Assembly: GCA_001783515.1 (NCBI GenBank)
Contig: MFMN01000003.1
Location: 1-61,420 of the forward strand
Source of the DNA: Candidatus Kaiserbacteria bacterium RIFCSPLOWO2_12_FULL_50_10
GTDB lineage: Bacteria; Patescibacteriota; Minisyncoccia; Phycocordibacterales; UBA918
Reading direction: 5' to 3'
DNA length: 61,420 bases
Shown: piece by piece, positions 14,416 to 55,671 of the stretch
Numbering within the stretch: position 1 is the stretch's first letter
Layout: every line of letters begins with the position of its first letter
The notes under the pieces: generated by a model
Told to the model about the DNA's origin: nothing
The model's database searches: none
What the model saw: only the letters and a program-made list of their open reading frames with translations
Position numbers and translations under genes: made by a program

Positions 14416-14442
14416 AAAAACAGTGTAGAAGCACTGTTTTTT
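14416..14442 (+). terminator. Intrinsic terminator hairpin
   Basis: AAAAACAGTG..CACTGTTTTTT. Confidence 0.7.
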
Positions 14443-14448
14443 ACTTTG

Positions 14449-14607
14449 GATAATAAGGAGTTCGGCCACGATCGCTTAGTATTTGTTGTTCGCTTGCGCT
14501 CCAAAATACTAAGCGTTGCCGACCCCGCCTTGCCTCCCATTATATAACTCCGCTAAAGCTACGTAATATAATGGGTTCCCAGACGTCCTTTTGAGCCCCT
14601 TATCGTC
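14449..14607 (+). ncRNA. Candidate structured RNA/element, tRNA-linked family, copy 1 (convergent with tRNA-Val)
   Basis: It has a terminal helix, conserved hairpin 1 (CGCTTAGTATTT/AAATACTAAGCG), TTGCCGACCCCGCCT, and hairpin 2 (CCCATTATAT/ATATAATGGG). It aligns end to end with the reverse complement of 33181-33354. The strand is inferred from shared orientation only. Confidence 0.45.
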
Positions 14608-14621
14608 TCACGGCGGGCAAC

Positions 14622-14647
14622 AAAATAAACGCGTACGCGTTTATTTT
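14622..14647. terminator. Palindromic bidirectional terminator between element and tRNA-Val
   Basis: AAAATAAACGCGTACGCGTTTATTTT is a perfect palindrome. Confidence 0.65.
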
Positions 14648-14655
14648 AGCCGCTG

Positions 14656-14729
14656 TGGACGATAAGGGACTCGAACCCCCGACCTCTGCAATGTCAATGC
14701 AGCGCTCTAACCAGCTGAGCTAACCGTCC
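14656..14729 (-). tRNA. tRNA-Val (anticodon GAC)
   Basis: The reverse complement reads GGACGGTTAGCTCAGCTGGTTAGAGCGCTGCATTGACATTGCAGAGGTCGGGGGTTCGAGTCCCTTATCGTCCA. It folds as a cloverleaf with a 7-bp acceptor stem and a TTGACAT anticodon loop. CCA is not encoded. Confidence 0.9.
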
Positions 14730-32929: not shown

Positions 32930-33056
32930 GTACACGTGCGGGAAAACATTTGACAATTTGCTAGATTTCGCTATTATAGCAACACATTCAGGAGACGAAA
33001 GTTTCCGAAATGGTCATAACTGACCGAGCGGCACTACGAAGGTATGTGCCTACCTC

Positions 33057-33129
33057 GGGCCTGTAGCTCATCTGGTAGAGCGCCCCGCTTGCACCGGGGA
33101 GGTAGCGGGTTCAAGTCCTGTCGGGTCCA
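33057..33129 (+). tRNA. tRNA-Ala (anticodon TGC)
   Basis: GGGCCTGTAGCTCATCTGGTAGAGCGCCCCGCTTGCACCGGGGAGGTAGCGGGTTCAAGTCCTGTCGGGTCCA. It folds as a cloverleaf with G3:U70 and a CTTGCAC anticodon loop. Confidence 0.9.
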
Positions 33130-33179
33130 CAAAGACATAAAACCAACGCGTCTAGCGTTGGTTTTATCTTGTCTTTGTG
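33128..33179. terminator. Long perfect hairpin after tRNA-Ala
   Basis: CACAAAGACATAAAACCAACGC-GTCTA-GCGTTGGTTTTATCTTGTCTTTGTG. Confidence 0.7.
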
Positions 33180-33180
33180 A

Positions 33181-33354
33181 GACCCGACAGGACTTGAACG
33201 CCGGAGCCGGTATACAAGATTGTTACTGATACGAAGCTTTTGCGTAGTACAGTAACAATACTTGTCGGAGAGGCGGGGTCGGCAACGCTTAGTATTTTTG
33301 GAGCGGCAGCGAACAACAAATACTTTAGCGATTGTGACCAAGTCCTGTCGGGTC
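33181..33354 (-). ncRNA. Candidate structured RNA/element, tRNA-linked family, copy 2 (convergent with tRNA-Ala)
   Basis: It has a 16-bp terminal helix GACCCGACAGGACTTG/CAAGTCCTGTCGGGTC, the conserved core, and hairpin ATTGTTACTG/CAGTAACAAT. It aligns with 14449-14607. Confidence 0.45.
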
Positions 33355-33364
33355 ATCCCGCATT

Positions 33365-33691
33365 TTACTCGACCGTAAAATTATACCCAGAAAATCTCCC
33401 AGAAAGTATTTGACGCGTGACATCACGGTCTGGTTCAGTCCCGAAAACAGTACTTGTCCCGTAGAGTGTTGCATGGGTGCCTTCCATCTTTATTTTTCCG
33501 CCACCTTTGCAAACACAGATGACATCGTCACCAAGTTCCTTTTGAAACAACGCGAAGAGGTCTTTGTGCCACTCTGCAATGTGTGGTGGCGCTACAGCAA
33601 TATATATTTCTGCACCACAGGTAATCACAATAAATTTTCCACTTTCGAGATGCTCAGTAGGCATAAACACCTGTTGGACTATGTTTTTCAT
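33365..33691 (-). CDS. Hypothetical protein (108 aa)
   Basis: The ORF has AAGTATACT plus 6 nt immediately upstream of the ATG (33698-33703). I recognise no family. Confidence 0.5.
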   Translation of the reverse strand: MKNIVQQVFMPTEHLESGKFIVITCGAEIYIAVAPPHIAEWHKDLFALFQKELGDDVICVCKGGGKIKMEGTHATLYGTSTVFGTEPDRDVTRQILSGRFSGYNFTVE

Positions 33692-36072: not shown

Positions 36073-36228
36073 GCTTGGGTAGCTCAGTTTGAGGAGACCG
36101 ACCGCTTCCGCGGACCAGGTCGGTCTCGCTGCTAAGGATGTCGGCCGCCGCCGACACTATCAAAAATGTTTGCTTTCGCAAACATGGCAGATAGAGCACT
36201 CATTGCCTGCGATGGAATGCTGAAGAGT
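36073..36228 (+). pseudogene. Degenerate tRNA-Phe copy 1 with ~102-nt D-loop insert
   Basis: GCTTGGGTAGCTCAGTT is identical to the intact gene. Then comes an insert at 36090-36191 with three hairpins, then TAGAGCACTC, an 18-nt insert and CTGAAGAG. There is no T arm. Confidence 0.65.
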
Positions 36229-36235
36229 ATAATAC

Positions 36236-36308
36236 GCTTGGGTAGCTCAGTTGGTAGAGCACTCCCCTGAAGAGGGAGGGGTCACCAGTTCGACCCTGGT
36301 CCCAAGCA
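36236..36308 (+). tRNA. tRNA-Phe (anticodon GAA)
   Basis: GCTTGGGTAGCTCAGTTGGTAGAGCACTCCCCTGAAGAGGGAGGGGTCACCAGTTCGACCCTGGTCCCAAGCA. It folds as a canonical cloverleaf. Confidence 0.9.
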
Positions 36309-36317
36309 CAAAATAAA

Positions 36318-36486
36318 TAGCTCAGTTGGACACCGCTCCACTACGTTCCGCGGCGCAGAGCCTGCACTCGCGATCAAAAAGAACATGCCCTACGGGACAC
36401 GTTCTTTTTGTCACTCGTTTGACTCTGATAGAGCACTCCCCTGAAGAGGGAGGGTGTCGCCGAGTTCCGAACCCTGGTCCCAAGCA
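36318..36486 (+). pseudogene. Degenerate tRNA-Phe copy 3 with 99-nt D-loop insert, lacking 5' acceptor strand
   Basis: TAGCTCAGTTGG, then an insert at 36330-36428, then TAGAGCACTCCCCTGAAGAGGGAGGG (identical anticodon arm). A corrupted T arm follows, then CCCTGGTCCCAAGCA. Confidence 0.65.
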
Positions 36487-36491
36487 CCTAT

Positions 36492-36522
36492 AAAAACGCA
36501 ATGCATACGCATTGCGTTTTTT
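36492..36522 (+). terminator. Intrinsic terminator hairpin
   Basis: AAAAACGCAATGC-ATAC-GCATTGCGTTTTTT. Confidence 0.75.
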
Positions 36523-36525
36523 GCG

Positions 36526-43968: not shown

Positions 43969-44949
43969 TTAGCTGTTAAGTTCTGATAAATGTTTCTGTG
44001 CATCCGCAGTGGCGATGCGGCCTCTTGGGGTGCGTTCGAGGAAGCCTTCGCGGATGAGGTAGGGTTCGAGCACGTCTTCGACCGTTGACTCTTCTTCGCC
44101 TGTTGCTGCAGCGATCGTGTTGAGTCCGACGGGGCCGCCGCGGAACTTGTGGATAATTGCCTCAAGCACACGGCGGTCAGGGGCGTGGAGCCCGCGGTGA
44201 TCGATTTCAAGAAGGGCAAAGGTGCGGTCGACAATGTCATTCGTGATGGCGCTTCCGTCAAGTTGTGCTAAGTCGCGGCAGCGCTTCAAGAGATAGTTTG
44301 CGGTACGTGGCGTTGAACGGCAGCGGGTCGCAATAGAAGAGAGGACGCCGTTGGCAAGCTCTGTTTCGAGAAGATGTGCGGAGCGTTCGAGGATAGCAGC
44401 AATCTCGTCGTCAGTATAAAACTCGAGTCGGAATGTGCCACCAGAGAAGCGAGAGCGCAGCGGACTTGACAATAATGACATTCGTGTTGTTGCCGCAACG
44501 AGGGTAAAGGGGGGGAGCTCGAGTTGTACCGTTCTCGCAGAGGGTCCCTTACCGATGATAATGTCGAGCACACCAGATTCCATTGCGGGGTAGAGTACCT
44601 CCTCGATTGATTTTGAGAGTCGGTGGATTTCATCAATGAAGAGGACGTCGCCAGGGGAAAGATTGGTGAGGATTGCCGCAAGGTCGCCGACGCGTTCAAT
44701 GGCGGGGCCAGAGGTTGTTTTCATGTTGGTGCCGAGCGTGCGCGCAATGAGGTTCGCTAACGTTGTTTTCCCGAGCCCGGGAGGACCGTAGAGCAAGATA
44801 TGCTCCGCGGCGTGTCCGCGTTCGCGAGCAGCGGTGAGCAAAATGCGGAGGTTTTCCTTAATTTTTGCTTGCCCAATATACTCATCCCACTCCTTAGGGC
44901 GAAGTGTTTGGTCGAGGTTGGACGCTTGGTCTTTGGTAAACGTTGCCAT
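43969..44949 (-). CDS. ruvB: Holliday junction branch migration helicase RuvB
   Basis: [32 protein letters not shown] and the RuvB C-terminal winged helix. Confidence 0.95.
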
Positions 44950-45008
44950 AGGAGCAGTGTAGCATAATGCATATCGTTTCGCACATTCGTGGTATACTTT
45001 CGGGTAGT

Positions 45009-47021
45009 ATGACCTCGATAGATCCTGAGCGAATTACCTATTTTGCAGAGACGGACGCGCGCGGGAAGCGTGTGCCGTTTGGTATACGCGCAAAGGATCG
45101 TACTCGTCATGTGTATGTCATCGGGAAGTCAGGCATGGGCAAATCAACCCTGCTTGAAAACATGGCCGTGCAAGACATTCGTAATGGCGAAGGTTTCGCT
45201 TTTATCGACCCCCACGGACAATCGGCAGACGCCATCATGCGACATATCCCGCAAGAGCGTCTCAAAGACGTGCTGTATTTTAATCCGTCTGATCTCGCGC
45301 ACCCGATTGCGTTCAATGTGCTCGAGCGCGTTGACCCAGACAAGCGGTTTTTGGTAGTTGCCGGACTCATGTCGGTCTTTAAGAAGATTTGGGTCGATGC
45401 ATGGTCGGCGCGTATGGAGTATTTGCTCCAGTACACGCTCTCGGCGCTCCTTGAATATCCTGATGCGACACTCCTTGGTGTGAACCGCATGCTCTCCGAA
45501 AAAGGGTATCGAGATGCGGTGGTGGCACACGTCACCGACCCTGCGGTGAAGTCGTTCTGGGAAGACGAGTACGCGAAGTATTCCGAAAAGTACGCACAAG
45601 AAGCGGGCGATGCGATTAAAAACAAAATTGGTCAGTTCACGTCGAACCCCGTTGTGCGTAACATTATCGGGCAGTCACACACAAGTTTTAATTTGCGTAA
45701 GTTTATGGATGAACGCAAAATCCTCATCGTGAACCTCTCAAAAGGACTCATTGGTGAGTCGAACGCAAACCTGCTTGGTTCAATGCTTACGACGAGTATC
45801 TATCTTGCTGCGATGAGTCGTGCAGATTTATCACCGCGTGAGCACGCCGCTGCGCCAAACTTTTATTTCTACGTTGATGAGTTTCAGTCTTTTGCGAACG
45901 CGACGTTTGCGAACATTTTGTCCGAGGCGCGCAAATATAAACTCAACCTCACCATCGCGCACCAGTACGTCGACCAAATGGAAGAAGACGTGCGTAATGC
46001 GGTGTTCGGCAACGTGGGTACCACGATTACTTTTCGTGTGGGGCCGCTCGATGCGGAGGTGCTCGAAAAGATGTTTGAGCCGACCTTTATGGCGACGGAT
46101 ATCGTCTCGCTTGGCTTTGCGCAGATTTATCTCACCATGATGATTGATGGCATCGGGTCGCCGCCGTTTTCTGCAAAGACACTTCCGCCAATCCGTGAAC
46201 CAGAGACGACATACTACGATGTGGCGATTGCGGAGAGTCGTAAGCAGTTTAGTTTGCCTCGCGCGGAGGCCGAGGTGAAAGTAAATGCATTTTATACGGA
46301 ACAATTCGCATCAGCATCAACTGCAAAAAAAGACTTTAAGAAAGATTTCAAAAAAGAAGGCGAGCGAAGTCCTCGCGCAGAGCGTGCGGTGCCTGATGAT
46401 CGAAAACCTCTTTCCGATGAGGAAAAGTCGCGTCATAAAGATGACTTACGTGCGATCCTCTCTGGTTTGGGTGAAGCGCGCCCTGCAGAAGTTTTGACGA
46501 CATCCCCTGAAAAAGAAGAAGAGACATTCGAAGAAAAGCCTACACCAGTCCAAGAAGTTCCTGTACGCAAGGAACCTCGACCTGAAGCAGGAACTAGGGA
46601 AGAGGCGCGTCCGCCACGTCGTCCTGCTCGAGACCTAAGTGCGCGTGAGCGTGGGACAAAGCAAGCGTACGTAGATCACGAACCACCGAAGCAGCACGAC
46701 TTAAAAAACGCTCTCGCCGCTGCACTTGCAGGCATAACACCTCCCGAAAAAGTAGTGTATGAAGAGCCGGTGCCGCGCACCGCCCCTGAAGTCGTCTCTG
46801 TCGTCATTCCTGAAACCCCCGCACCGTCAGTCAAAGAAGATACGCTTGCCGAATCCCACCCCCTGAAACCGAAAGATGTAGAAAAGCTTCGCAAGCACTT
46901 TGACGAAAAAGCCGCTGAAGTTTCTGCCCTACAACGTGCACCGCACGAAGTTACGCCGCAAGCGCTTGCGCACATGATGCGCATCACACTTCGCGATAAA
47001 AAACGTCGCCCAACATCATAA
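45009..47021 (+). CDS. T4SS coupling-protein-type (TraD/VirD4/TrwB-like) P-loop ATPase with long charged C-terminal tail
   Basis: Walker [10 protein letters not shown], Walker [12 protein letters not shown], and [22 protein letters not shown] plus 10 nt precedes the ATG. There is no N-terminal TM segment. Confidence 0.65.
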
Positions 47022-47506: not shown

Positions 47507-47548
47507 ACGGTTTGGAAGCAGTCTCCACAGACTGTTTTTAGTCGCGCG

Positions 47549-47557
47549 TGGTACAAT
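47549..47557 (+). promoter_or_regulatory. Extended -10 box TGGTACAAT, 8 nt upstream of ATG 47566
   Basis: The sequence reads tggtacaat, ctctgcac, then ATG. Confidence 0.55.
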
Positions 47558-47565
47558 CTCTGCAC

Positions 47566-50500
47566 ATGAAGATGATGCGCGCACTCAACATAGCTCTCTT
47601 TTCTCTCGGCGTATTTTTCATGCCGGTTTCTGTGCATGCAGCGGTTCAGTTTATTGGGGCGACAACAGGCACGAACTCTGCGACGATGCCTGCGGGCGTG
47701 CAGGTAGGCGACATTCTTATTGGTGTGGGCTACCGTGGACAAAACGCAACACCTGTCGGCGTTCCTTCAGGATGGACTGCGATCGATCCGAGCAGCGGTA
47801 GCAACAACAATTCGTCGCGTATTGGTTTTATCTATGTCACCAGCCCCACTATGTCGCTCGGTAATTGGGCGAGTGCAAATAAGGTGATTATTACTGCGTA
47901 CCGCGGCGTACGCAGTGACTACAGTGCGACGAATCTCCCCAATTTTGCAGGTGTATGGACGGGGGCAAGTGCTACTGTTTCATTTCCCTCACTCACACTC
48001 GCCGGCACAACGAACACCTCGCATATTCTTTGGTTCGGGGGGCAACGTGCCACACAGACCTTCTCTATACCGACATGGTCACGAGCGGGAACTATCCGCA
48101 TGCAGTCATCAGGAACAAACGGTTCTATTGTGGCTGCTGACACAAACGGTGTGACCGCGAACGGTTCGTCCATTTTTATGAACACGTCGTCGTCGCAGCA
48201 GTACCGCACGTACGCGATTGAAGTAGAGAGCGCGACACCGCTCGAGCCAACAATGACGCTAGCCGCACAAAATACCACCGTTGCGCTTGGCGGATCAACC
48301 GCACTCACCTGGTCGTCAACCAATGCAGCTTCCTGTACCGCGTCGGGAGGCTGGAGCGGAACCCTTAGCGCCAGCGGTTCGCAGACCGTCGGTCCAATAA
48401 CGCAGAGTACCACCTTCACCCTTGCTTGTTCGGGGGCACAGGGTACGGCAACGTCGTCAGTGACGGTGGTGCCAGGAATCACCGTCGACAATGTTCTTAC
48501 GACAGACCAGGGTTTTCAGGTGTATGCATTCAATGCGAATGGTACACTTTCAACAATTGCGCGGAAAACAGACTTCCCGGCAGGGTACGGTGTTGTAGGG
48601 GGGTGGAGCAGTGTCGAGATTGACAATGTAGGCGGCGCCTCAGAGCTCTTGCGTGTTATTTTTGATAATCCTGCAACAACTACACAGGTACAGGTTGCTT
48701 GGGCACAAGCAGCCGGTCCCTCAGCTATGTATACGCTGTATAACGCTGACGGTATCTTTGTTGCCTCCGGTACAATACCGACAGCGGGCACAGACGGTGT
48801 TGATGACCCAGTAACGCTCGATGCAGGCGGTCAGTCATATTCGCGAATAGATTTTACGGCAAACCTTGACAGGAACTTTATCATTCACAGTATTCTCCTA
48901 CCTGACGGACTTATTGTTGGTGCAGATCCCGTGGTTACTTCAATTGCCGCAATCGGCACGAATGCGGCACGCGAATATACAGTAGGTGACACCGATGGAC
49001 TCATACAGCTTATTGGTACCGATTTCGGAACCACCGCAGGCGCCGTAGTCTTTTCGGGTACATGGGGCACAGCGACGGGAACCATCCATACAACTGCCGA
49101 GGGCTCGTGTGCTGTTGGCGACTTCACGGACACCTCGGTGTGTGTTGAAGTGCCGAGCAGCATTCCTGATGACGTATATACAGCGACCGTTACGCTCGTG
49201 CGTGCAGACGGTGCGGTTGCAACAGCGCCAACACTCACCATTCTTCCTCGCATTACAAGCATGACACCGACGACAGTTTTGGAAGGTGATACCATTACTA
49301 TTGCGGGCAATCACCTCTGCCAGACCGGCACCTGCCCGACAGTATTCGATGCAGGTAATACGATTACGATTGGCGGTGTTACGGCGACGCTTGTCTCATG
49401 GTCGCATACGGGGATTGTGGTGACGGTGCCGTCTGGTATTTCAGCAGGTGTAAATACAGTAACGGTAACAACAGGTGGGACCGCAATTACTGCGGGTTCT
49501 GTCACATTTACCCCACCGCCAACGCTGAATCTCACTGCTGCAGCGACAGTCGTTGCGCTCGGTAGCGCGACGAACCTCTCGTGGTCAACAACAAACGCTA
49601 CATCCTGTAGCGCTTCAGGAACATGGGATGATGTTACGCTGTTTAATGGTGCAAATTGGGTTTCAGGACAAAATAATGGAAGAGCAATCAGTATGAATGG
49701 TACTAATCAGTATGCGGCGGCACCCACCGGCGTTGTCGCGACTGCTGGTGTCACGACTATCTCCGCGTGGGTTAACATGAACTCCCTAAGCACCTGGATG
49801 CGTATATTCGATTTTGGGACAGGAACAAACAACTATATGTTCTTGGCGCCTCGTGGCGGTAGCAATGTGATTCGTTTTGGTATACGAACGCCAGCAGTAG
49901 GTGAGCAGCAGATAAACGGTACCGCAGCACTCCCGACAGGCGGCTGGCATCATGTTGCGGTAACGATGAGCGGCACAACCGGTGTGCTCTATGTTGATGG
50001 TGTACAGGTTGGCAGCAACACAAACATGACACTCACGCCGTCAAGTCTTGGCAACACCACGCAAAACTGGATTGGTCGCTCACAGTGGCCGGATCCATAT
50101 CTCAATGGGCTCGTACAAGATTTTCGTATCGACACGGGCGCATTTACCGCCGCACAAATTACTGCGCTTATGCAAGGAACAGCAAGTGGCGCAACGACGA
50201 TCTTCGCAATAGGCAGCGGATGGAGTGGTGCCTTGGGAACATCCGGCACACAGTCAACAGGCGCTATTACTGCGCCAACAACATTCTCACTTATGTGTAC
50301 CGGCCCCGGCGGCAGCGCATCGTCATCGGTTACGGTCTCGCCAGTTAGTGCGGCAACCGTTTCTCTTACGGCGTCGCCAACAAGCGTTAATCTCAATGGC
50401 ACTTCAACACTTTCCTGGTCGGCAACGGATGCAGATAGCTGTACGGCAACAGGCGGCTGGTCAGGTCCGCTAGGGGCTTCTGGCTCGACATCAACCGCGC

Positions 50501-52638
50501 CGCTTGCAACGTCGACCGTCTTTGGTATTTCTTGTACCAATATCAGCGGCACGGTACTTGCATCGACGACAGTTACGGTTACGCAGCCGCCAACAATCAC
50601 GGGAAGTGGTAACGGCTATACAAATACTACCAACACGGCAGTCAACGACGGCGGCGCTGCCCTCGACAGCATTACTATTACGGGAGAAAATTTTGGTGCA
50701 CAATGCGATACGGCAAACTTCATCACCATCGGTGGCTACCAGATTCCTTGTGCGAACGTGACGAGTTGGACGACAACCAGTATTACGTTTACCATTCCTG
50801 CATCTATCGACAACCTTGGCGGAACTGGAGTCAACGGACTTACCATCACTACAGGCGGACAAACGTCAACGCCAGTAGATTTTGTGGTGTATCCAAGCAT
50901 TACCTCGATTGCAGCACCAAGTACGAACAGTGGCGCAGAAGGAAGTGTTATCCAGCTCATAGGTTCAGCATTCGGCACAGGCGCAGGAACTATCACGTTC
51001 TCAGGCTCATGGGGGACGGCAACCGCAACGATTCAGTTGACCGCGAGCGGTTCGTGTACTGTCGGCGGGTGGACAAACACCTCTGTCTGTGTGACGGTGC
51101 CCGGAGGTATTCCTGATGACGCGTATACCGCAACCATCACCCTCGAGCGCACTGATGGGGCAGCGGCAACGGCGCCGACATTTACCATTGCGCCACAGGT
51201 AGCAAGTATGTCGCCAATGTCAGGTGTTGCCGGCGATACTATCACTATTACAGGTAATCATCTTTGCCAAACGGGCACCTGTCCAACATCGTTCGATGCA
51301 GGGAATATCATCACGATTGGTGGCGTTACCGCAACGCTTGTTTCGTGGTCACATACCGGTATTGTGGTGACCGTGCCGCCTGGCGTTACGATTGGCGCGA
51401 ACACGGTTGTTGTTACTACGAATGGAGTTTCCATTGGTGCGGGTACGTTGAACGTGCTTAGTACCACGCCCAATACACCAGACATCTCGGGCGTGGGAGG
51501 AACCGGGCAGTTTAGTAATGGAAGTGCTGTGGCAGTTGGTGAGGCCGCTGCATCGTCAACGGTGACCTTCACCGCATCACTGAGCGCACAAACGTCAGCA
51601 ACGCTCGCACTTGAAGTTGAAGTAAAGCCGGTCGGTACAGCATTTGATGCATCGGGTATCTTTGTCGGGGGCTCGGTACTCTACAGTGGCGCAGCGGTGC
51701 TTGGTAGTGTGACGTCAGAGCTCAGCAATAATGCGTCGTATCACTGGCGGGCACGAGTGCGCAATGTAAGTACGAATGAAGTCTCTGCATGGGTTGCGTT
51801 CGGCAGTAACCCCGGAGGCGACGGCTCTGGCGATGGCGAGCCTGCGAACATAGACCTCACCATCGCAACAGGCGGGCCAACCGTGAGCGGCGTCGGTACT
51901 GGCCCTGGCTGCACCGCGCATGATTTGGTGAAGGATACCTCGGCGCGTATTGCATGGACTGCGTCGTCAATTCTCTCGCCGATTGCGAATAAAGTTCGCC
52001 TTGCAACGTCGTCATCAATGGCAGACTTTGTTGAGTATCCTGCATCAAACGGTACCGCACCACAGGTAACGCTCACCGGCCTCGTGGCCGAGACGGCATA
52101 CTACTATCAGGTCATCTCACAAGACTCACTCGGCACCGAAACGATACTTCAGGAAAACGAACCGCACTGCACCTTCATTACCGAGGAGGCCTCAAAGCGT
52201 ATCAACAAGCTTTCCGAGTTCTATATTTGTCAGATGCATGCGCAAGACGAAGTATGGACAGGAGGTTCGGGCGTTACCTGTATTTCAGGCGACGACGGTG
52301 CAAAAACATTCAATGTCTTCGTCTCCGAAATGGTTGCGTCGAAGCCGGTGGTGCAAACCTCCGCATTCGTTGAAGTCTTCGGTATTGCAGAAGCCTCGGG
52401 CGACTTCACGGTCACGGTCAACGTCAACAATATCGGACCAAAAACAATCACGGTGAAAAACCCACAAGGTTCAATACCGTATCGAGTACTGTATCATTTG
52501 CCCGACGGCTACAATCTCGATTTTCCCGCAGACACGAGTGCCTCAAACCTCCTTGATGTGCAGGTGAGCGGTGCGGATACGGTGTCCTCAATGGGGGCAA
52601 AGGCAATACTAAACTATTACTATTTCCCAACATACTGA
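47566..52638 (+). CDS. Giant secreted adhesin-like protein (~1,690 aa): signal peptide, Ig-like Cys-pair modules, IPT/TIG-like repeats, LamG domain, FN3-like domain
   Basis: MKMMRALNIALFSLGVFFMPVSVHA signal peptide. The LamG segment is WMRIFDFGTGTNNYMFLAP..GGWHHVAVTMSGTTGVLYVDGVQVG. ITIAGNHLCQTGTCP repeats and an FN3-like ARIAWTASS..TGLVAETAYYYQV are present. Confidence 0.75.
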   Translation: MKMMRALNIALFSLGVFFMPVSVHAAVQFIGATTGTNSATMPAGVQVGDILIGVGYRGQNATPVGVPSGWTAIDPSSGSNNNSSRIGFIYVTSPTMSLGNWASANKVIITAYRGVRSDYSATNLPNFAGVWTGASATVSFPSLTLAGTTNTSHILWFGGQRATQTFSIPTWSRAGTIRMQSSGTNGSIVAADTNGVTANGSSIFMNTSSSQQYRTYAIEVESATPLEPTMTLAAQNTTVALGGSTALTWSSTNAASCTASGGWSGTLSASGSQTVGPITQSTTFTLACSGAQGTATSSVTVVPGITVDNVLTTDQGFQVYAFNANGTLSTIARKTDFPAGYGVVGGWSSVEIDNVGGASELLRVIFDNPATTTQVQVAWAQAAGPSAMYTLYNADGIFVASGTIPTAGTDGVDDPVTLDAGGQSYSRIDFTANLDRNFIIHSILLPDGLIVGADPVVTSIAAIGTNAAREYTVGDTDGLIQLIGTDFGTTAGAVVFSGTWGTATGTIHTTAEGSCAVGDFTDTSVCVEVPSSIPDDVYTATVTLVRADGAVATAPTLTILPRITSMTPTTVLEGDTITIAGNHLCQTGTCPTVFDAGNTITIGGVTATLVSWSHTGIVVTVPSGISAGVNTVTVTTGGTAITAGSVTFTPPPTLNLTAAATVVALGSATNLSWSTTNATSCSASGTWDDVTLFNGANWVSGQNNGRAISMNGTNQYAAAPTGVVATAGVTTISAWVNMNSLSTWMRIFDFGTGTNNYMFLAPRGGSNVIRFGIRTPAVGEQQINGTAALPTGGWHHVAVTMSGTTGVLYVDGVQVGSNTNMTLTPSSLGNTTQNWIGRSQWPDPYLNGLVQDFRIDTGAFTAAQITALMQGTASGATTIFAIGSGWSGALGTSGTQSTGAITAPTTFSLMCTGPGGSASSSVTVSPVSAATVSLTASPTSVNLNGTSTLSWSATDADSCTATGGWSGPLGASGSTSTAPLATSTVFGISCTNISGTVLASTTVTVTQPPTITGSGNGYTNTTNTAVNDGGAALDSITITGENFGAQCDTANFITIGGYQIPCANVTSWTTTSITFTIPASIDNLGGTGVNGLTITTGGQTSTPVDFVVYPSITSIAAPSTNSGAEGSVIQLIGSAFGTGAGTITFSGSWGTATATIQLTASGSCTVGGWTNTSVCVTVPGGIPDDAYTATITLERTDGAAATAPTFTIAPQVASMSPMSGVAGDTITITGNHLCQTGTCPTSFDAGNIITIGGVTATLVSWSHTGIVVTVPPGVTIGANTVVVTTNGVSIGAGTLNVLSTTPNTPDISGVGGTGQFSNGSAVAVGEAAASSTVTFTASLSAQTSATLALEVEVKPVGTAFDASGIFVGGSVLYSGAAVLGSVTSELSNNASYHWRARVRNVSTNEVSAWVAFGSNPGGDGSGDGEPANIDLTIATGGPTVSGVGTGPGCTAHDLVKDTSARIAWTASSILSPIANKVRLATSSSMADFVEYPASNGTAPQVTLTGLVAETAYYYQVISQDSLGTETILQENEPHCTFITEEASKRINKLSEFYICQMHAQDEVWTGGSGVTCISGDDGAKTFNVFVSEMVASKPVVQTSAFVEVFGIAEASGDFTVTVNVNNIGPKTITVKNPQGSIPYRVLYHLPDGYNLDFPADTSASNLLDVQVSGADTVSSMGAKAILNYYYFPTY

Positions 52639-54628: not shown

Positions 54629-55498
54629 TTAGTTTCTGCGAAGTAGACCGCTGCCACTCACAATCTCCCCCATAAGCTCCATACGCATCAAAAGCGTATT
54701 CACCGCACCAACAGAGAGTTGGTGTTTTTCTTGTATCGCGCGAATAACAACATCAGATGCTTTTGGTTCGCGAAGGAGGTGGAGCACGAGCGCTTCTGGC
54801 GTTCCTTCAGGATAGCTAACGGTAGCTGTGGTTTCTTCAGTTCGCTCGGGAAGATGTAGTGCATGCACAATATCAAGCGCACTCGTTACAGGTGTTGCTC
54901 CTATCTTTAGGAATTGATGCACGCCTGCGCTATTTTCAGAGAATATATTTCCGGGCACCACAAGGAGGTCCTTATTGTATTCATGCGCAAGTCGTGCCGT
55001 GATAAGGCTTCCTGATTTTGCTTTTGCCTCAATCACAAGCACTGCATCAGCAATACCTGCAATGATGCGATTGCGCGCGGGGAACATCCATGGCATTGAT
55101 TTCTCCTCTGGCGCAAACTCACTCATTAACATTCCGTCTTCACGCAAAATGCGAACTGCAAGATGGCGGTTGCTTCGTGGATACAATACACTGTCCGCAA
55201 TACCACTCCCTGGAATCGCAATGGTGTGCAGCCCCGCATCAAGCGCTGCCTCATGTGCAAGACCATCAATCCCCAGTGCAAGTCCTGACACAATAGAAAT
55301 AGGGTAGCCTCGGAGTCCTTTGATAAGATGCTGCACACACTGCTTGCCATAGTTTGTATAGTCGCGACTTCCCACAACCGCAAGCATACGAGTACCCGGC
55401 AAAGGCAGCGTGCCGCGCATAAAAAAAGTAGCAGGCACGTCAGGAATCTCCCGTAGCGAAGGGAAGTGTGACGGCGCATACTCATGGATAGGATACAT
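54629..55498 (-). CDS. dprA: DNA-processing protein DprA (Smf)
   Basis: VVGSRDYTNYGK, SGLALGIDGLAHEAAL and FPARNRIIAGIADAVLVIEAKAKSGSLITA. The start is moved to M25 because TATAAT plus 6 nt precedes it. Confidence 0.85.
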   Translation of the reverse strand: MYPIHEYAPSHFPSLREIPDVPATFFMRGTLPLPGTRMLAVVGSRDYTNYGKQCVQHLIKGLRGYPISIVSGLALGIDGLAHEAALDAGLHTIAIPGSGIADSVLYPRSNRHLAVRILREDGMLMSEFAPEEKSMPWMFPARNRIIAGIADAVLVIEAKAKSGSLITARLAHEYNKDLLVVPGNIFSENSAGVHQFLKIGATPVTSALDIVHALHLPERTEETTATVSYPEGTPEALVLHLLREPKASDVVIRAIQEKHQLSVGAVNTLLMRMELMGEIVSGSGLLRRN

Positions 55499-55671
55499 GC
55501 TACGATTATAGTCACATCCACAAAAACGCATAGCCAAAACATATTTGACTTTATGCATAAAATGTGGCATTCTTCAAAATGATTCTGTACGTTCCCCAGA
55601 TCTTTGACAGCAAAAAGATTATACACATGAGTACATGTTCTGTTTTTTGATGCTTACGAAGGAGTATTGGC

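Follow-up and report, generated by a model that had tools for sequence, protein, structure and literature searches.

tRNA genes are classic landing sites of mobile DNA. Integrative elements with tyrosine integrases that occupy tRNA genes at the T-loop sublocation are a known class, and Williams is said to have classified the sublocations of tRNA-gene integration in 2002. Direct repeats that run from the T-loop to the end of the tRNA are the classical site pattern of these integrases. CTX phage and other Xer-exploiting elements carry a folded single-stranded attP, target dif and rely on XerC/XerD for catalysis; integron attC sites are also folded single-strand sites, with the polarity RYYYAAC...GTTRRRY. 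Further mobile elements have RNAs that carry guides, among them the bridge RNA of IS110 and the omega RNA or reRNA of IS200/IS605.

The known elements of tRNA genes combine an integrase with one fixed attachment site. In a 61,420-nt stretch of DNA from a Kaiserbacteria genome (contig MFMN01000003.1; hereafter, the window), and at related loci, we find instead a non-coding unit of 200-300 nt at one position (56|57) in many tRNAs, each copy of which carries a sense/antisense pair matched to its own tRNA.

Anatomy of the tRNA-Ala locus

The window contains a tRNA-Ala(TGC) gene on the + strand at 33057-33129/30, detected by ARAGORN and scoring 60.7 bits with the Rfam tRNA model; the gene is intact at 33057..33129, and CCA is not encoded. 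A sigma-70-like promoter (TTGACA, 16-nt spacer, TATTAT) that matches 11 of 12 consensus positions lies upstream, at 32950..32977 on the same strand, and is the sole promoter-like site near the element. The 3' segment of the tRNA gene is present three times, in the order direct, inverted, direct. The sequence GTTCAAGTCCTGTCGGGTC at 33109-33127 recurs as an exact reverse complement at 33181-33199 (19 nt, 100%), and CAAGTCCTGTCGGGTC is found twice in direct orientation, at 33112-33127 and 33339-33354. The arms 33181-33196 and 33339-33354 are 100% complementary over 16 nt. Allowing up to two mismatches, we counted 3 occurrences of the 16-nt tRNA-Ala word in the window; 0 of 100 shuffles gave three, and the 0.02 occurrences expected from the shuffle mean bear out the threefold exact repeat reported in a first-pass annotation of this DNA.

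The T-loop of tRNA-Ala holds an insertion of ~230 bases with no protein-coding content, its insertion point lying between C56 (33112) and A57 (33113). Repeat comparison places the proximal direct copy (X), equivalent to tRNA positions 57-74, at 33113..33130, within the working tRNA; on the insertion model, X is supplied by the element. It runs into a terminator-like, locus-specific hairpin (H; 33128..33179), identified by its fold and by a terminator score that holds in both directions. H had been described as a perfect 52-nt hairpin, but it has 22 pairs, a 3-nt bulge on its 3' side and a 5-nt loop, with a DNA folding energy of -22 kcal/mol (z = -10). The inverted copy (X'; 33181..33199, by repeat comparison) is the exact antisense of tRNA positions 53-71, with positions 72-74 also matched in antisense, by 33177-33179. 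X' ends at the family-wide junction AAC|GCCGGAG, where the core begins. The first core domain, P2 (33200..33274), consists of a GCC/GGC clamp, a GGAG/CGAG internal loop, a variable hairpin and a GAAGC-N4-GCG cap; its stems are wholly different between copies, with the fold kept. The second, P3 (33277..33339), is built on a GGUCG/UGACC base that includes an invariant G.U; its covarying stem is capped by GAGC-N3-4-GCGAA, and the domain closes with ...GATTGTGACC, whose final C takes the place of tRNA C56. The distal direct copy (X*; 33340..33354, again by repeat comparison) is equivalent to positions 57-71; it is the displaced original 3' end of the tRNA and, at tRNA-Ala of this genome, breaks off after position 71. 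All of these parts are on the + strand.

Together, X, H and X' are predicted to form a hairpin of ~44 bp, and this X:X' hairpin is the predicted fold of the whole single strand of the element, as RNA and as DNA alike. The first-pass annotation argued that the inverted copy goes beyond simple integration and, indeed, a plain double-stranded integrase scar does not explain it. Neither of the refuting scenarios set out there was borne out; in particular, the inverted copy is not what is left of a second tRNA-Ala gene in opposite orientation, since only positions 53-74 are present, with the core directly next to them.

Family members and an empty tRNA-Val site

Related loci were collected with a loose P3 pattern over sequence collections, and the counts of loci and of tRNA species are lower bounds. 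The family is present at at least 15 loci and at least nine tRNA species in Kaiserbacteria, Falkowbacteria and other Patescibacteria; its hosts are tRNA-Ala, Val(GAC), Val(TAC), Lys, Gly, Phe, Ser(GGA), Ser(GCT) and one unidentified tRNA. All copies follow one plan: the tRNA up to C56; X (tRNA positions 57-74); H, a terminator-like hairpin specific to each locus; X' (antisense of positions 53-74, exact at nearly every locus and with the same boundary); a core of 100-210 nt with two hairpins, beginning GCCGGAG and ending GTGACC; and X*, the second direct copy of positions 57-74. The right junction is GTG[AG]CC|R57 in all copies, and the left junction is AAC|GCCGGAG or a near variant in most. 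The pattern noted in the first pass for tRNA-Ala and tRNA-Val, an identical architecture with locus-specific arms, holds across this whole set, and the core is common to it.

At no fewer than 13 loci, direct repeats begin at R57 and extend to positions 71-76, or past the tRNA by as much as 19 nt; they range from 15 to ~37 nt, with one boundary fixed and the other variable. Since the repeat continues past the tRNA for 19 nt in locus L153 and for ~10 nt in L101, it was DNA that was duplicated, not mature tRNA. Neither CCA nor an A-tail is present at any junction. Elements are always oriented in the same direction as their tRNA, and many have a terminator on the same strand 3' of X*. GC skew places them in both orientations relative to replication and is thus not informative. 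At one locus (L020), tandem copies enclose an NYN-domain gene, another (L149) has a second GACC|X repeat, and entire copies have decayed at L144 and at tRNA-Val of the window. At the Phe locus, the core is present in a sister species and absent from the window. The tRNA-Phe gene of the window carries a different, att-type duplication.

The second element of the window lies at tRNA-Val(GAC) (14655..14729, - strand) and follows the plan of the Ala locus with other arm sequences; the conserved core is found nowhere else in the window. The parts, all on the - strand, are H (14609..14654), a terminator-like hairpin with 4 differences in 45 nt relative to its sister-species ortholog; a decayed X' (14590..14607; 16/18 ungapped, 19/22 gapped); a core with a different, shorter P2 and an Ala-type P3 (14464..14589); a decayed X*, GAACTCCTTATTATCC (14448..14463; 12/18); and the original tRNA-Val terminator, now distal (14416..14441), which is orthologous to the single terminator of an empty site. 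This empty site, L234, comes from a third species and belongs to an orthologous series with the context GatB, hypothetical gene, tRNA-Val, SLT. In L234, tRNA-Val is followed by one terminator, with the flanks ACAATAAAA... and ...TTTTATAAG. The window and L232 (sister species, assembly MFLE) are filled, with H, X', core and X* followed by a terminator with L234-like flanks. The single terminator of L234 aligns with the terminator 3' of the distal copy in the filled loci; hence, the distal copy is the displaced original tRNA end, and H, X' and core are inserted DNA. Similarly, we regard H of the Ala element as element-borne because the empty tRNA-Val site shows it to be so. Removing the element and one repeat from the filled site gives the empty site, as at an attachment site; precise loss of an element could equally have produced the latter.

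The previous 3' end (X*) and the original terminator have thus been displaced downstream, with X* decaying afterwards, and each of the three copies has its own identity: the first serves as the working tRNA end, the second as the palindromic partner internal to the element, and the third is the displaced original. The tRNA gene stays intact because the inserted block brings a new 3' end and terminator. The first-pass view that simple integration does not explain the inverted copy stands, but the direct copies are an insertion signature, as the empty tRNA-Val ortholog shows. We conclude that X, H, X' and core were very probably inserted as described, between C56 and R57 of the tRNA T-loop. Both Val X* copies share a derived C-to-T change, and X' of the sister species is still perfect (19/19). 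The tRNA and element together are 97.8% identical between the window and the sister species, compared with 82% for the MreB gene and flanks that are unalignable.

Empty orthologous sites had been suggested in the first pass as a comparison for tRNA-Ala. Whereas tRNA-Val yielded L234, a search through L31 homologues yielded none for tRNA-Ala, with synteny lost or the contig ending inside the tRNA. For tRNA-Lys, synteny is interrupted, L237 has a gap of Ns just where the comparison would be made, and no empty site was obtained; loci related via MreB contain almost no tRNAs, and their synteny is not conserved. The Ala and Val copies are unchanged among near-identical strains, with no direct sign of recent movement there, and the sequences of strains at the Ala, Phe and Val loci are identical except in L216 and L217.

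Elements are free of ORFs, and their neighbours at nine loci are housekeeping genes. A search for recombinases, also proposed in the first pass, came up empty: we found no integrase, transposase or reverse transcriptase among the ~49 ORFs of the window, and no integrase or reverse transcriptase among the neighbours at the nine loci. There is no TnpA, TnpB, IscB or IS110/DEDD recombinase in the window or beside the copies, and no IntI gene or cassette array adjoins the copies at the nine loci. We saw no excised or circular form. Exact core patterns, searched in genome and metagenome collections, matched only the sister Kaiserbacteria species, apart from chance matches, and no copy of the element was found in viral contigs, phage records or plasmid records. 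Of the Rfam 15 covariance models, none but that of tRNA reaches its gathering score in the window; at E values up to 10, region 32950-33450 gave only chance-level microRNA/sRNA matches, far below thresholds. We found no description of such an element family in the literature, and it is apparently undescribed.

The retained pairing and the fold of the core

The first-pass annotation proposed a 16-bp helix of the inverted and distal copies enclosing the core. Complementarity of these arms at tRNA-Ala is complete, but theirs is not the pairing that is kept. Across 13 loci, X* has 29 mismatches to the tRNA in 234 positions, none of them compensated, compared with 13 in 286 positions for X', which tracks the tRNA and not X*. 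Hence, the kept pairing is that of the tRNA 3' end with X', rather than the X':X* helix. That helix copies the acceptor and T-stem 3' strand, with the T-loop replaced by the core; G3:U70 becomes A:U in it, and an extra hairpin is located at 65/66 in most copies and at 60/61 in L238. We rejected a true tRNA mimic on the basis of this varying hairpin position and the decay of X*. Unlike tRNA-like RNAs such as tmRNA, bacterial Y RNA and viral tRNA-like structures, the element has no true T-arm with a T-loop motif. One arm had also been described as antisense to mature tRNA-Ala. The 19 nt are exact antisense, but X' matches the gene, including bases after the discriminator, and lacks a complement to CCA, so the mature tRNA end is not its specific target. 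With the CCA complement absent, a primer-binding site for mature tRNA was also rejected.

In P3, 12 of 19 pairs have changed on both sides. The P3 alignment has 91% of its cells paired, compared with 27-45% when partners are slid, a level equalled by 0 of 500 shuffles, and in a wider alignment 17 of 30 pairs are compensated. A G.U in P3a is nearly invariant. In 13 of 13 cores, the fold of the tRNA-sense (top) strand is the more stable one, with a margin of 3.6-18.4 kcal/mol. We conclude that selection maintains a single-strand fold of the core, on the tRNA-sense strand. With the invariant pair left out, G.U (8) is not clearly more frequent than A.C (7), so these counts do not separate RNA from DNA. 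The two hairpins are capped by a common GAGC-N3-4-GCGA motif, a hint that their binding partner may be a dimer.

Copies in one genome exchange core modules. Orthologous Val elements have different P2 and P3 types; the Ala and Lys cores of the sister species have 3 differences in 138 nt, with unrelated H and arms; and L217 has a mosaic core, in which the Ala side is joined to the X* and terminator of the Phe side.

Candidate origins and their implications

Our best explanation is that the family consists of small insertion elements, non-coding and non-autonomous, which target tRNA genes and act as a folded single strand, an account to which, taken whole, we give an even chance. Like CTX attP and attC, the elements have no recombinase of their own, and their hairpin varies in sequence with its structure kept. 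The order site, loop, inverted site, element, site would, by analogy with those systems, be the product of one-strand exchange with a hairpin substrate. As in the attP of CTX and IMEX, an inverted site copy lies near one end and the predicted hairpin (~44 bp) would rebuild a duplex site, with the same topology at all loci. Unlike in those systems, the target is the tRNA T-loop and not dif or attI, and the conserved two-hairpin core is an extra without counterpart there. The palindrome, 5'-GTTC...GAAC-3', is the mirror image of that of attC, and an integron attC was rejected for this wrong polarity.

The active form of such an element may be either top-strand DNA or a read-through RNA, folded as a single strand, in which the long X-H-X' hairpin would rebuild a duplex copy of the T-arm and acceptor segment of the tRNA gene. 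A recombinase or nuclease encoded elsewhere could join this strand to the T-loop at GTTC|R57 by a one-strand exchange, leaving the topology that results from single-strand recombination of the CTX-phage or integron-attC type. X' might stay matched if a later move copies or presents it as the new tRNA end, if the X-H-X' palindrome self-corrects during replication, or both. Changes of target would be rare and old, and near-identical cores at different tRNAs of one genome would arise via gene conversion; this retargeting by rare events and templated correction is speculation. We offer the mechanism as a whole tentatively, and consider it somewhat unlikely to be correct throughout.

A bolder reading is a programmable mobile unit without proteins, in which the ~20-nt X' would act as a guide that pairs with the tRNA gene or transcript, and the two-hairpin core as a scaffold for an outside recombinase or nuclease. 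Insertion at GTTC|R57 would copy the guide into the tRNA 3' end, and a change of guide alone would have re-aimed the unit at at least nine tRNA species. A conserved structured scaffold with a locus-specific, target-matching segment is also seen in IS110 bridge RNA and omega RNA and, as in TnpB reRNA, the scaffold ends ~10 nt after the hairpin foot with target sequence directly next to it. However, the IS110 and IS200/IS605 systems differ in that their recombinase or nuclease genes accompany none of our copies; moreover, the match here is an unbroken 19-24 nt that occurs in both senses, insertion creates a direct repeat, unlike with IS200/IS605, and there is no match to an Rfam family. We rate this reading as rather unlikely.

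A host or domesticated structured RNA gene located behind tRNA genes is a further alternative, and covariation over distant lineages would also fit it. Read-through of H, or processing of the tRNA precursor, would yield such an RNA; once the tRNA is removed, X' would pair with X* in a helix that copies the acceptor and T-arm of the adjacent tRNA. Alternatively, X' would be a 19-24-nt antisense guide against pre-tRNA, unmodified tRNA or a 3' tRNA fragment, with the capped hairpins as a protein-binding scaffold. Roles in quality control, in regulation or as a decoy for tRNA-directed enzymes can be envisaged. Strong covariation with a consistent strand preference, the invariable orientation with the tRNA, the same-strand terminators 3' of X*, retention of the core across distant Patescibacteria, an X' held matched to the tRNA and the shared cap, with the dimeric partner it suggests, are all consistent with this alternative. 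However, we found no promoter for the core, and directly upstream of it H scores as a terminator. The would-be partner strand, X*, decays uncompensated, entire copies decay, orthologous tRNAs may be without the element, and copy content differs between sister species, as at tRNA-Phe. The duplication takes in non-tRNA trailer, the tandem accretion at L020 includes a cargo gene, and a read-through transcript is predicted to misfold the tRNA. We therefore regard a host RNA as unlikely.

The fixed and variable repeat boundaries, with repeats of 18 to ~37 nt, are also what a SINE-like retroelement would leave, if an outside reverse transcriptase copied the core RNA from a primer at a T-loop nick in the tRNA gene, with the first nick fixed at 56|57 and the second variable. 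X' would then derive from the tRNA segment, copied by snap-back where the terminator hairpin folds. A precedent is the Mauriceville retroplasmid of Neurospora, which reportedly integrates at mitochondrial tRNA genes via hybrid cDNAs. The palindrome is centred on a hairpin able to self-prime, the structured strand has tRNA-sense polarity, and arms templated by the target would explain the reach to many tRNAs. We found no reverse transcriptase in the window or beside any copy, however, and the junctions lack CCA and A-tails. Contrary to the snap-back prediction, H at the Val and Ala loci is not a copy of the original terminator, and the left boundary after G53 has no obvious reverse-transcriptase stop. 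A SINE-like origin is thus very unlikely. Retron ncRNA also has inverted arms (its a1/a2 repeats), but the adjacent reverse transcriptase that goes with it was found at no locus.

We are equally doubtful that the copies are remnants of larger integrase-borne islands, that is, cis-mobilisable elements reduced to attL and attR by deletion of the interior, with the core as the arm region of a double-stranded attP and an inverted copy without a role. Like tyrosine-integrase tRNA elements, the copies lie inside tRNA genes, have direct repeats from the loop to the 3' end, supply a new 3' end while the displaced copy decays, accrete in tandem at one tRNA, and have filled and empty orthologous sites. 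The accretion and cargo at L020 and L149, and the att-type duplication at tRNA-Phe of the window, are consistent with islands. Unlike such elements, however, the copies are only 200-300 nt long with no integrase or other gene, none is accompanied by an integrase, and the same core occurs at at least nine tRNA species, for which one fixed attachment site cannot account, nor can one integrase with one attP serve nine tRNAs. The inverted att-segment copy, palindromic with the tRNA end, is exact at nearly every locus with the same boundary, and duplex protein-binding arm sites would not give compensatory stem changes or the strand-specific fold for which the core is selected.

MITEs are likewise small, non-coding, multi-copy, structured and flanked by repeats, but in the present family the target is the source of the terminal inverted repeats (X' and X*), which are different for each tRNA, the direct repeat varies from 15-37 nt with one end fixed, and insertion is confined to one position in tRNA genes. 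Three further candidates were rejected: a DDE-transposase target-site duplication, because the repeat length is variable; an archaeal-type bulge-helix-bulge intron, because the 3' strand is continuous from P3 into the arm helix; and a snap-back copy of the original terminator, because H and the distal terminator are not related.

Read conservatively, the insertions are a new family of structured nucleic acids missing from Rfam. The family accounts for the curious palindromes and broken assemblies 3' of tRNAs in MAGs of Patescibacteria, and its dispersed 140-nt repeats evolve in concert within very small genomes. If the arms are guides or a folded attachment site, the family would be a minimal insertion system, able to change its target and to repair each gene that it enters, and would be of interest to mobile-element biology, to the genome dynamics of bacteria of the candidate phyla radiation (CPR) and possibly as a tool. 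If the programmable unit is real, it would represent a new class of insertion system, one that is guided by nucleic acid and specialises in the universally conserved T-loop.

The tRNA-Ala locus and a common plan

The first-pass annotation had noted that part of the window's tRNA-Ala(TGC) gene (33057-33129) recurs downstream in both orientations. We found this to be so: the 19 nt at 33109-33127 recur in exact reverse complement at 33181-33199, and a direct 16-nt copy lies at 33339-33354. A search of the 61 kb that tolerates up to two mismatches finds the 16-mer three times, compared with 0.02 times in shuffles. The hairpin at 33128-33179, described as perfect, is actually 22 bp with a 3-nt bulge. 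The conserved core is indeed present in two copies in the window, one at tRNA-Ala and one at the minus-strand tRNA-Val(GAC). The stretch between the promoter-like site and tRNA-Ala (32978-33056) implies a leader of ~70 nt, unusually long for a lone tRNA gene. L31 and an adjacent hypothetical protein assign the window to a Candidatus Kaiserbacteria bacterium of the Rifle aquifer series.

The original observation is real, and wider in reach than could be seen from the window alone. A sister species (assembly MFLE, RIFCSPHIGHO2_02_FULL_49_34) has orthologous copies at Ala and Val(GAC), and four more at Lys, Gly, Phe and Val(TAC). A wider search, using a looser pattern and then a filter for a same-strand tRNA, added copies in at least two Falkowbacteria, behind Ser(GGA) and Ser(GCT), in at least one other Kaiserbacteria, behind Ser(GGA), and in at least two MAGs labelled Gammaproteobacteria, behind Ala and Ser(GCT); the members listed are a lower bound. 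A covariance model of the core hairpin P3 added L020, a tandem pair in a Patescibacteria MAG, and L238, a divergent copy behind tRNA-Lys in a different lineage.

Every copy has the same order: the tRNA through C56; its positions 57-74 (X); an A-rich/T-rich hairpin with a terminator score in both directions (H); the antisense of positions 53-74 (X'); the core; and a distal direct copy of positions 57-74, which at times extends into the tRNA trailer. The left junction, immediately past the complement of G53, is AAC/GCCGGAG or a near variant in most copies, and the right junction is uniformly GTG[AG]CC/R57. X' is split at 65/66 by a small extra hairpin in the Ser, Phe, Val(TAC) and L020 copies, and at 60/61 in L238.

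Empty and filled sites

The tRNA-Val(GAC) context (GatB, a hypothetical gene, tRNA-Val, SLT transglycosylase) is conserved in three species. In the third species (locus L234), a single terminator directly follows the tRNA and lies between the flanks ACAATAAAA and TTTTATAAG. The window and the sister species (L232) share these flanks, which there enclose a distal terminator located after the distal copy; H, X' and the core separate tRNA-Val from that copy. Since L234 is empty and the other two sites are filled, the inserted block is X+H+X'+core or, equivalently, H+X'+core plus the distal copy. On this sequence comparison, H is part of the insertion, and the distal copy and distal terminator are the original tRNA end. 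Three further features agree with that assignment: the duplication spans trailer sequence at two other loci (19 nt in L153, 15/19 identical; ~10 nt in L101), CCA is absent from every junction, and a distal terminator of like kind follows the distal copy at the sister species' Phe locus and in L139, L101 and L020. The insertion lies at T-loop position 56/57 and supplies a replacement tRNA end and terminator, after which the old end decays; the direct repeats are the signature of insertion. We place high confidence in this anatomy and in the insertion, and low confidence in any mechanism of movement.

Pieces of tRNA-Phe make up a mosaic at the window's tRNA-Phe locus (36073-36525). It opens with the initial 17 nt of the gene (36073-36089) and a 103-nt insert; next come AGAGCACTC (36193-36201), a TATAAT-like box and then the working tRNA-Phe (36236-36309), which is followed by TAGCTCAGTTGG (36318-36329) and an insert of ~100 nt with a terminator-like hairpin; and a degenerate copy of positions 21-76 (36430-36487) precedes the terminator (36490-36525). 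The layout resembles a second type of insertion, one at the D-loop. The sister species' tRNA-Phe carries a T-loop family element instead. The sister species' tRNA-Met (L003, 1150-1505, minus strand) is followed by two degenerate tandem tRNA-Met-like copies with one hairpin each, where the window's tRNA-Met has a plain terminator.

Pairing, core fold and exchange

The first-pass annotation proposed that X' and the distal copy form a 16-bp helix around the core. Across 13 loci, mismatches to the tRNA complement affect 13 of 286 positions in X', in a gap-tolerant alignment that is somewhat flattering to X', and mismatches to the tRNA affect 29 of 234 in the distal copy. Wherever the distal copy is mutated (Lys, Gly, Val, L153, L149 and L020), X' still fits the tRNA and not the distal copy. 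Both orthologous Val distal copies have a derived change in common, yet the sister species' X' still matches at 19/19 positions; decay of the distal copy therefore predates the species split, while X' was held. Because X' tracks the tRNA as the distal copy decays, the proposed helix is not the conserved pairing, its inner 8-11 bp perhaps excepted. X' is the constant, maintained component of the element. In the predicted fold of the full single strand, X and X' form a hairpin of ~44 bp at the cost of the tRNA cloverleaf. Quasi-palindromes tend to self-correct by template switching, and X' could be maintained in this way or by selection on the palindrome.

The core is a selected single-strand fold of two hairpins, both capped by a GAGC-N3-4-GCGA(A)-like sequence. 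P2 combines a GCC/GGC clamp and a GGAG/CGAG loop with a hairpin highly variable in length and sequence; P3 rises from a GGUCG/UGACC base, in which one G.U is almost invariant, into a long stem that covaries. In P3, 12 of 19 pairs are altered on both sides, and pairing holds in 91% of cells versus 27-45% with slid partners, values reached by none of 500 shuffles. The tRNA-sense strand folds better as RNA than its complement in all 13 cores, by 3.6-18.4 kcal/mol. No Rfam family was matched by the core, and no core promoter was found, the only good promoter being the tRNA's own.

Between window and sister species, tRNA plus element are 97.8% identical, compared with 82% for MreB, and the flanks are unalignable. 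By hand count, the Ala orthologues differ at 2/52 positions in H and 4/139 in the core, and the Val orthologues at 4/45 in H; H and core have diverged about equally. In the sister species, only 3 of 138 positions distinguish the Ala core from the Lys core, yet H and arms of the two copies are unrelated; the orthologous Val elements of the two species have different P2 and P3 types. These comparisons and contig L217 (below) point to frequent gene conversion or recombination among core copies, in which case paralogues can be old and target changes rare. In a strain with an identical L31, L217 (4509-4832) joins H and X' of tRNA-Ala to a mosaic core with compensated changes and to the Phe distal copy and terminator, omitting the Ocnus-domain gene, tRNA-Met, MreB and tRNA-Phe. 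The contig may be a chimera assembled across two core copies or else a genuine recombinant; both readings imply a core at tRNA-Phe in that strain. L020 has tandem near-identical copies around a 176-aa NYN-domain ORF (425-955). Decayed copies include L144 and the window's Val copy; in near-identical strains, the Ala and Val loci were unchanged.

In L020 (1-1500), the host tRNA is apparently interrupted by group I intron-like sequence containing GTTCAGAGACTA, with no ARAGORN tRNA call. At L149 (2300-3312), a second GACC/AAATCCCTCATCG repeat lies 40 nt past the distal copy, followed by an ORF with weak HerA/TraG P-loop matches; a larger element may have integrated at the same tRNA-Val(TAC). L237 has an N-run scaffold gap (1316-1417) directly downstream of a homologue of the gene flanking the sister species' tRNA-Lys and element, and the L225 contig ends inside tRNA-Ala, which suggests that the repeats break assemblies.

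Gene context and proposed movement

At nine loci, the genes beside the element are housekeeping genes that differ from locus to locus. No integrase, transposase or reverse transcriptase was found among ~49 window ORFs scanned, the element was absent from viral contigs and from phage and plasmid records, and our literature search found no description of it. The window encodes RuvB (43969-44949, minus strand), a TrwB-like coupling-protein ORF (44967-47021), a 1696-aa Laminin_G/TIG surface protein (47548-52638) and DprA (54629-55570, minus strand), a set of functions in uptake and recombination that could act on single-stranded DNA.

Three rival readings (simple remnants of islands that carried an integrase, a SINE-like retroelement using snap-back synthesis, and a host RNA carrying an antisense guide to the tRNA) each agree with some of the data and fail on others. 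We suggest instead that the element would act as a folded single strand, with the X-H-X' hairpin offering an enzyme encoded elsewhere a double-stranded copy of the targeted segment. One-strand exchange in which the substrate is a hairpin would give the element's layout of site, loop, inverted site, element and site, and it yields such a layout in CTX phage and integron attC. Our analysis shows a multi-copy, non-coding, structured family whose modules are exchanged among copies. We conclude that the element is a new kind of miniature tRNA-targeting element.
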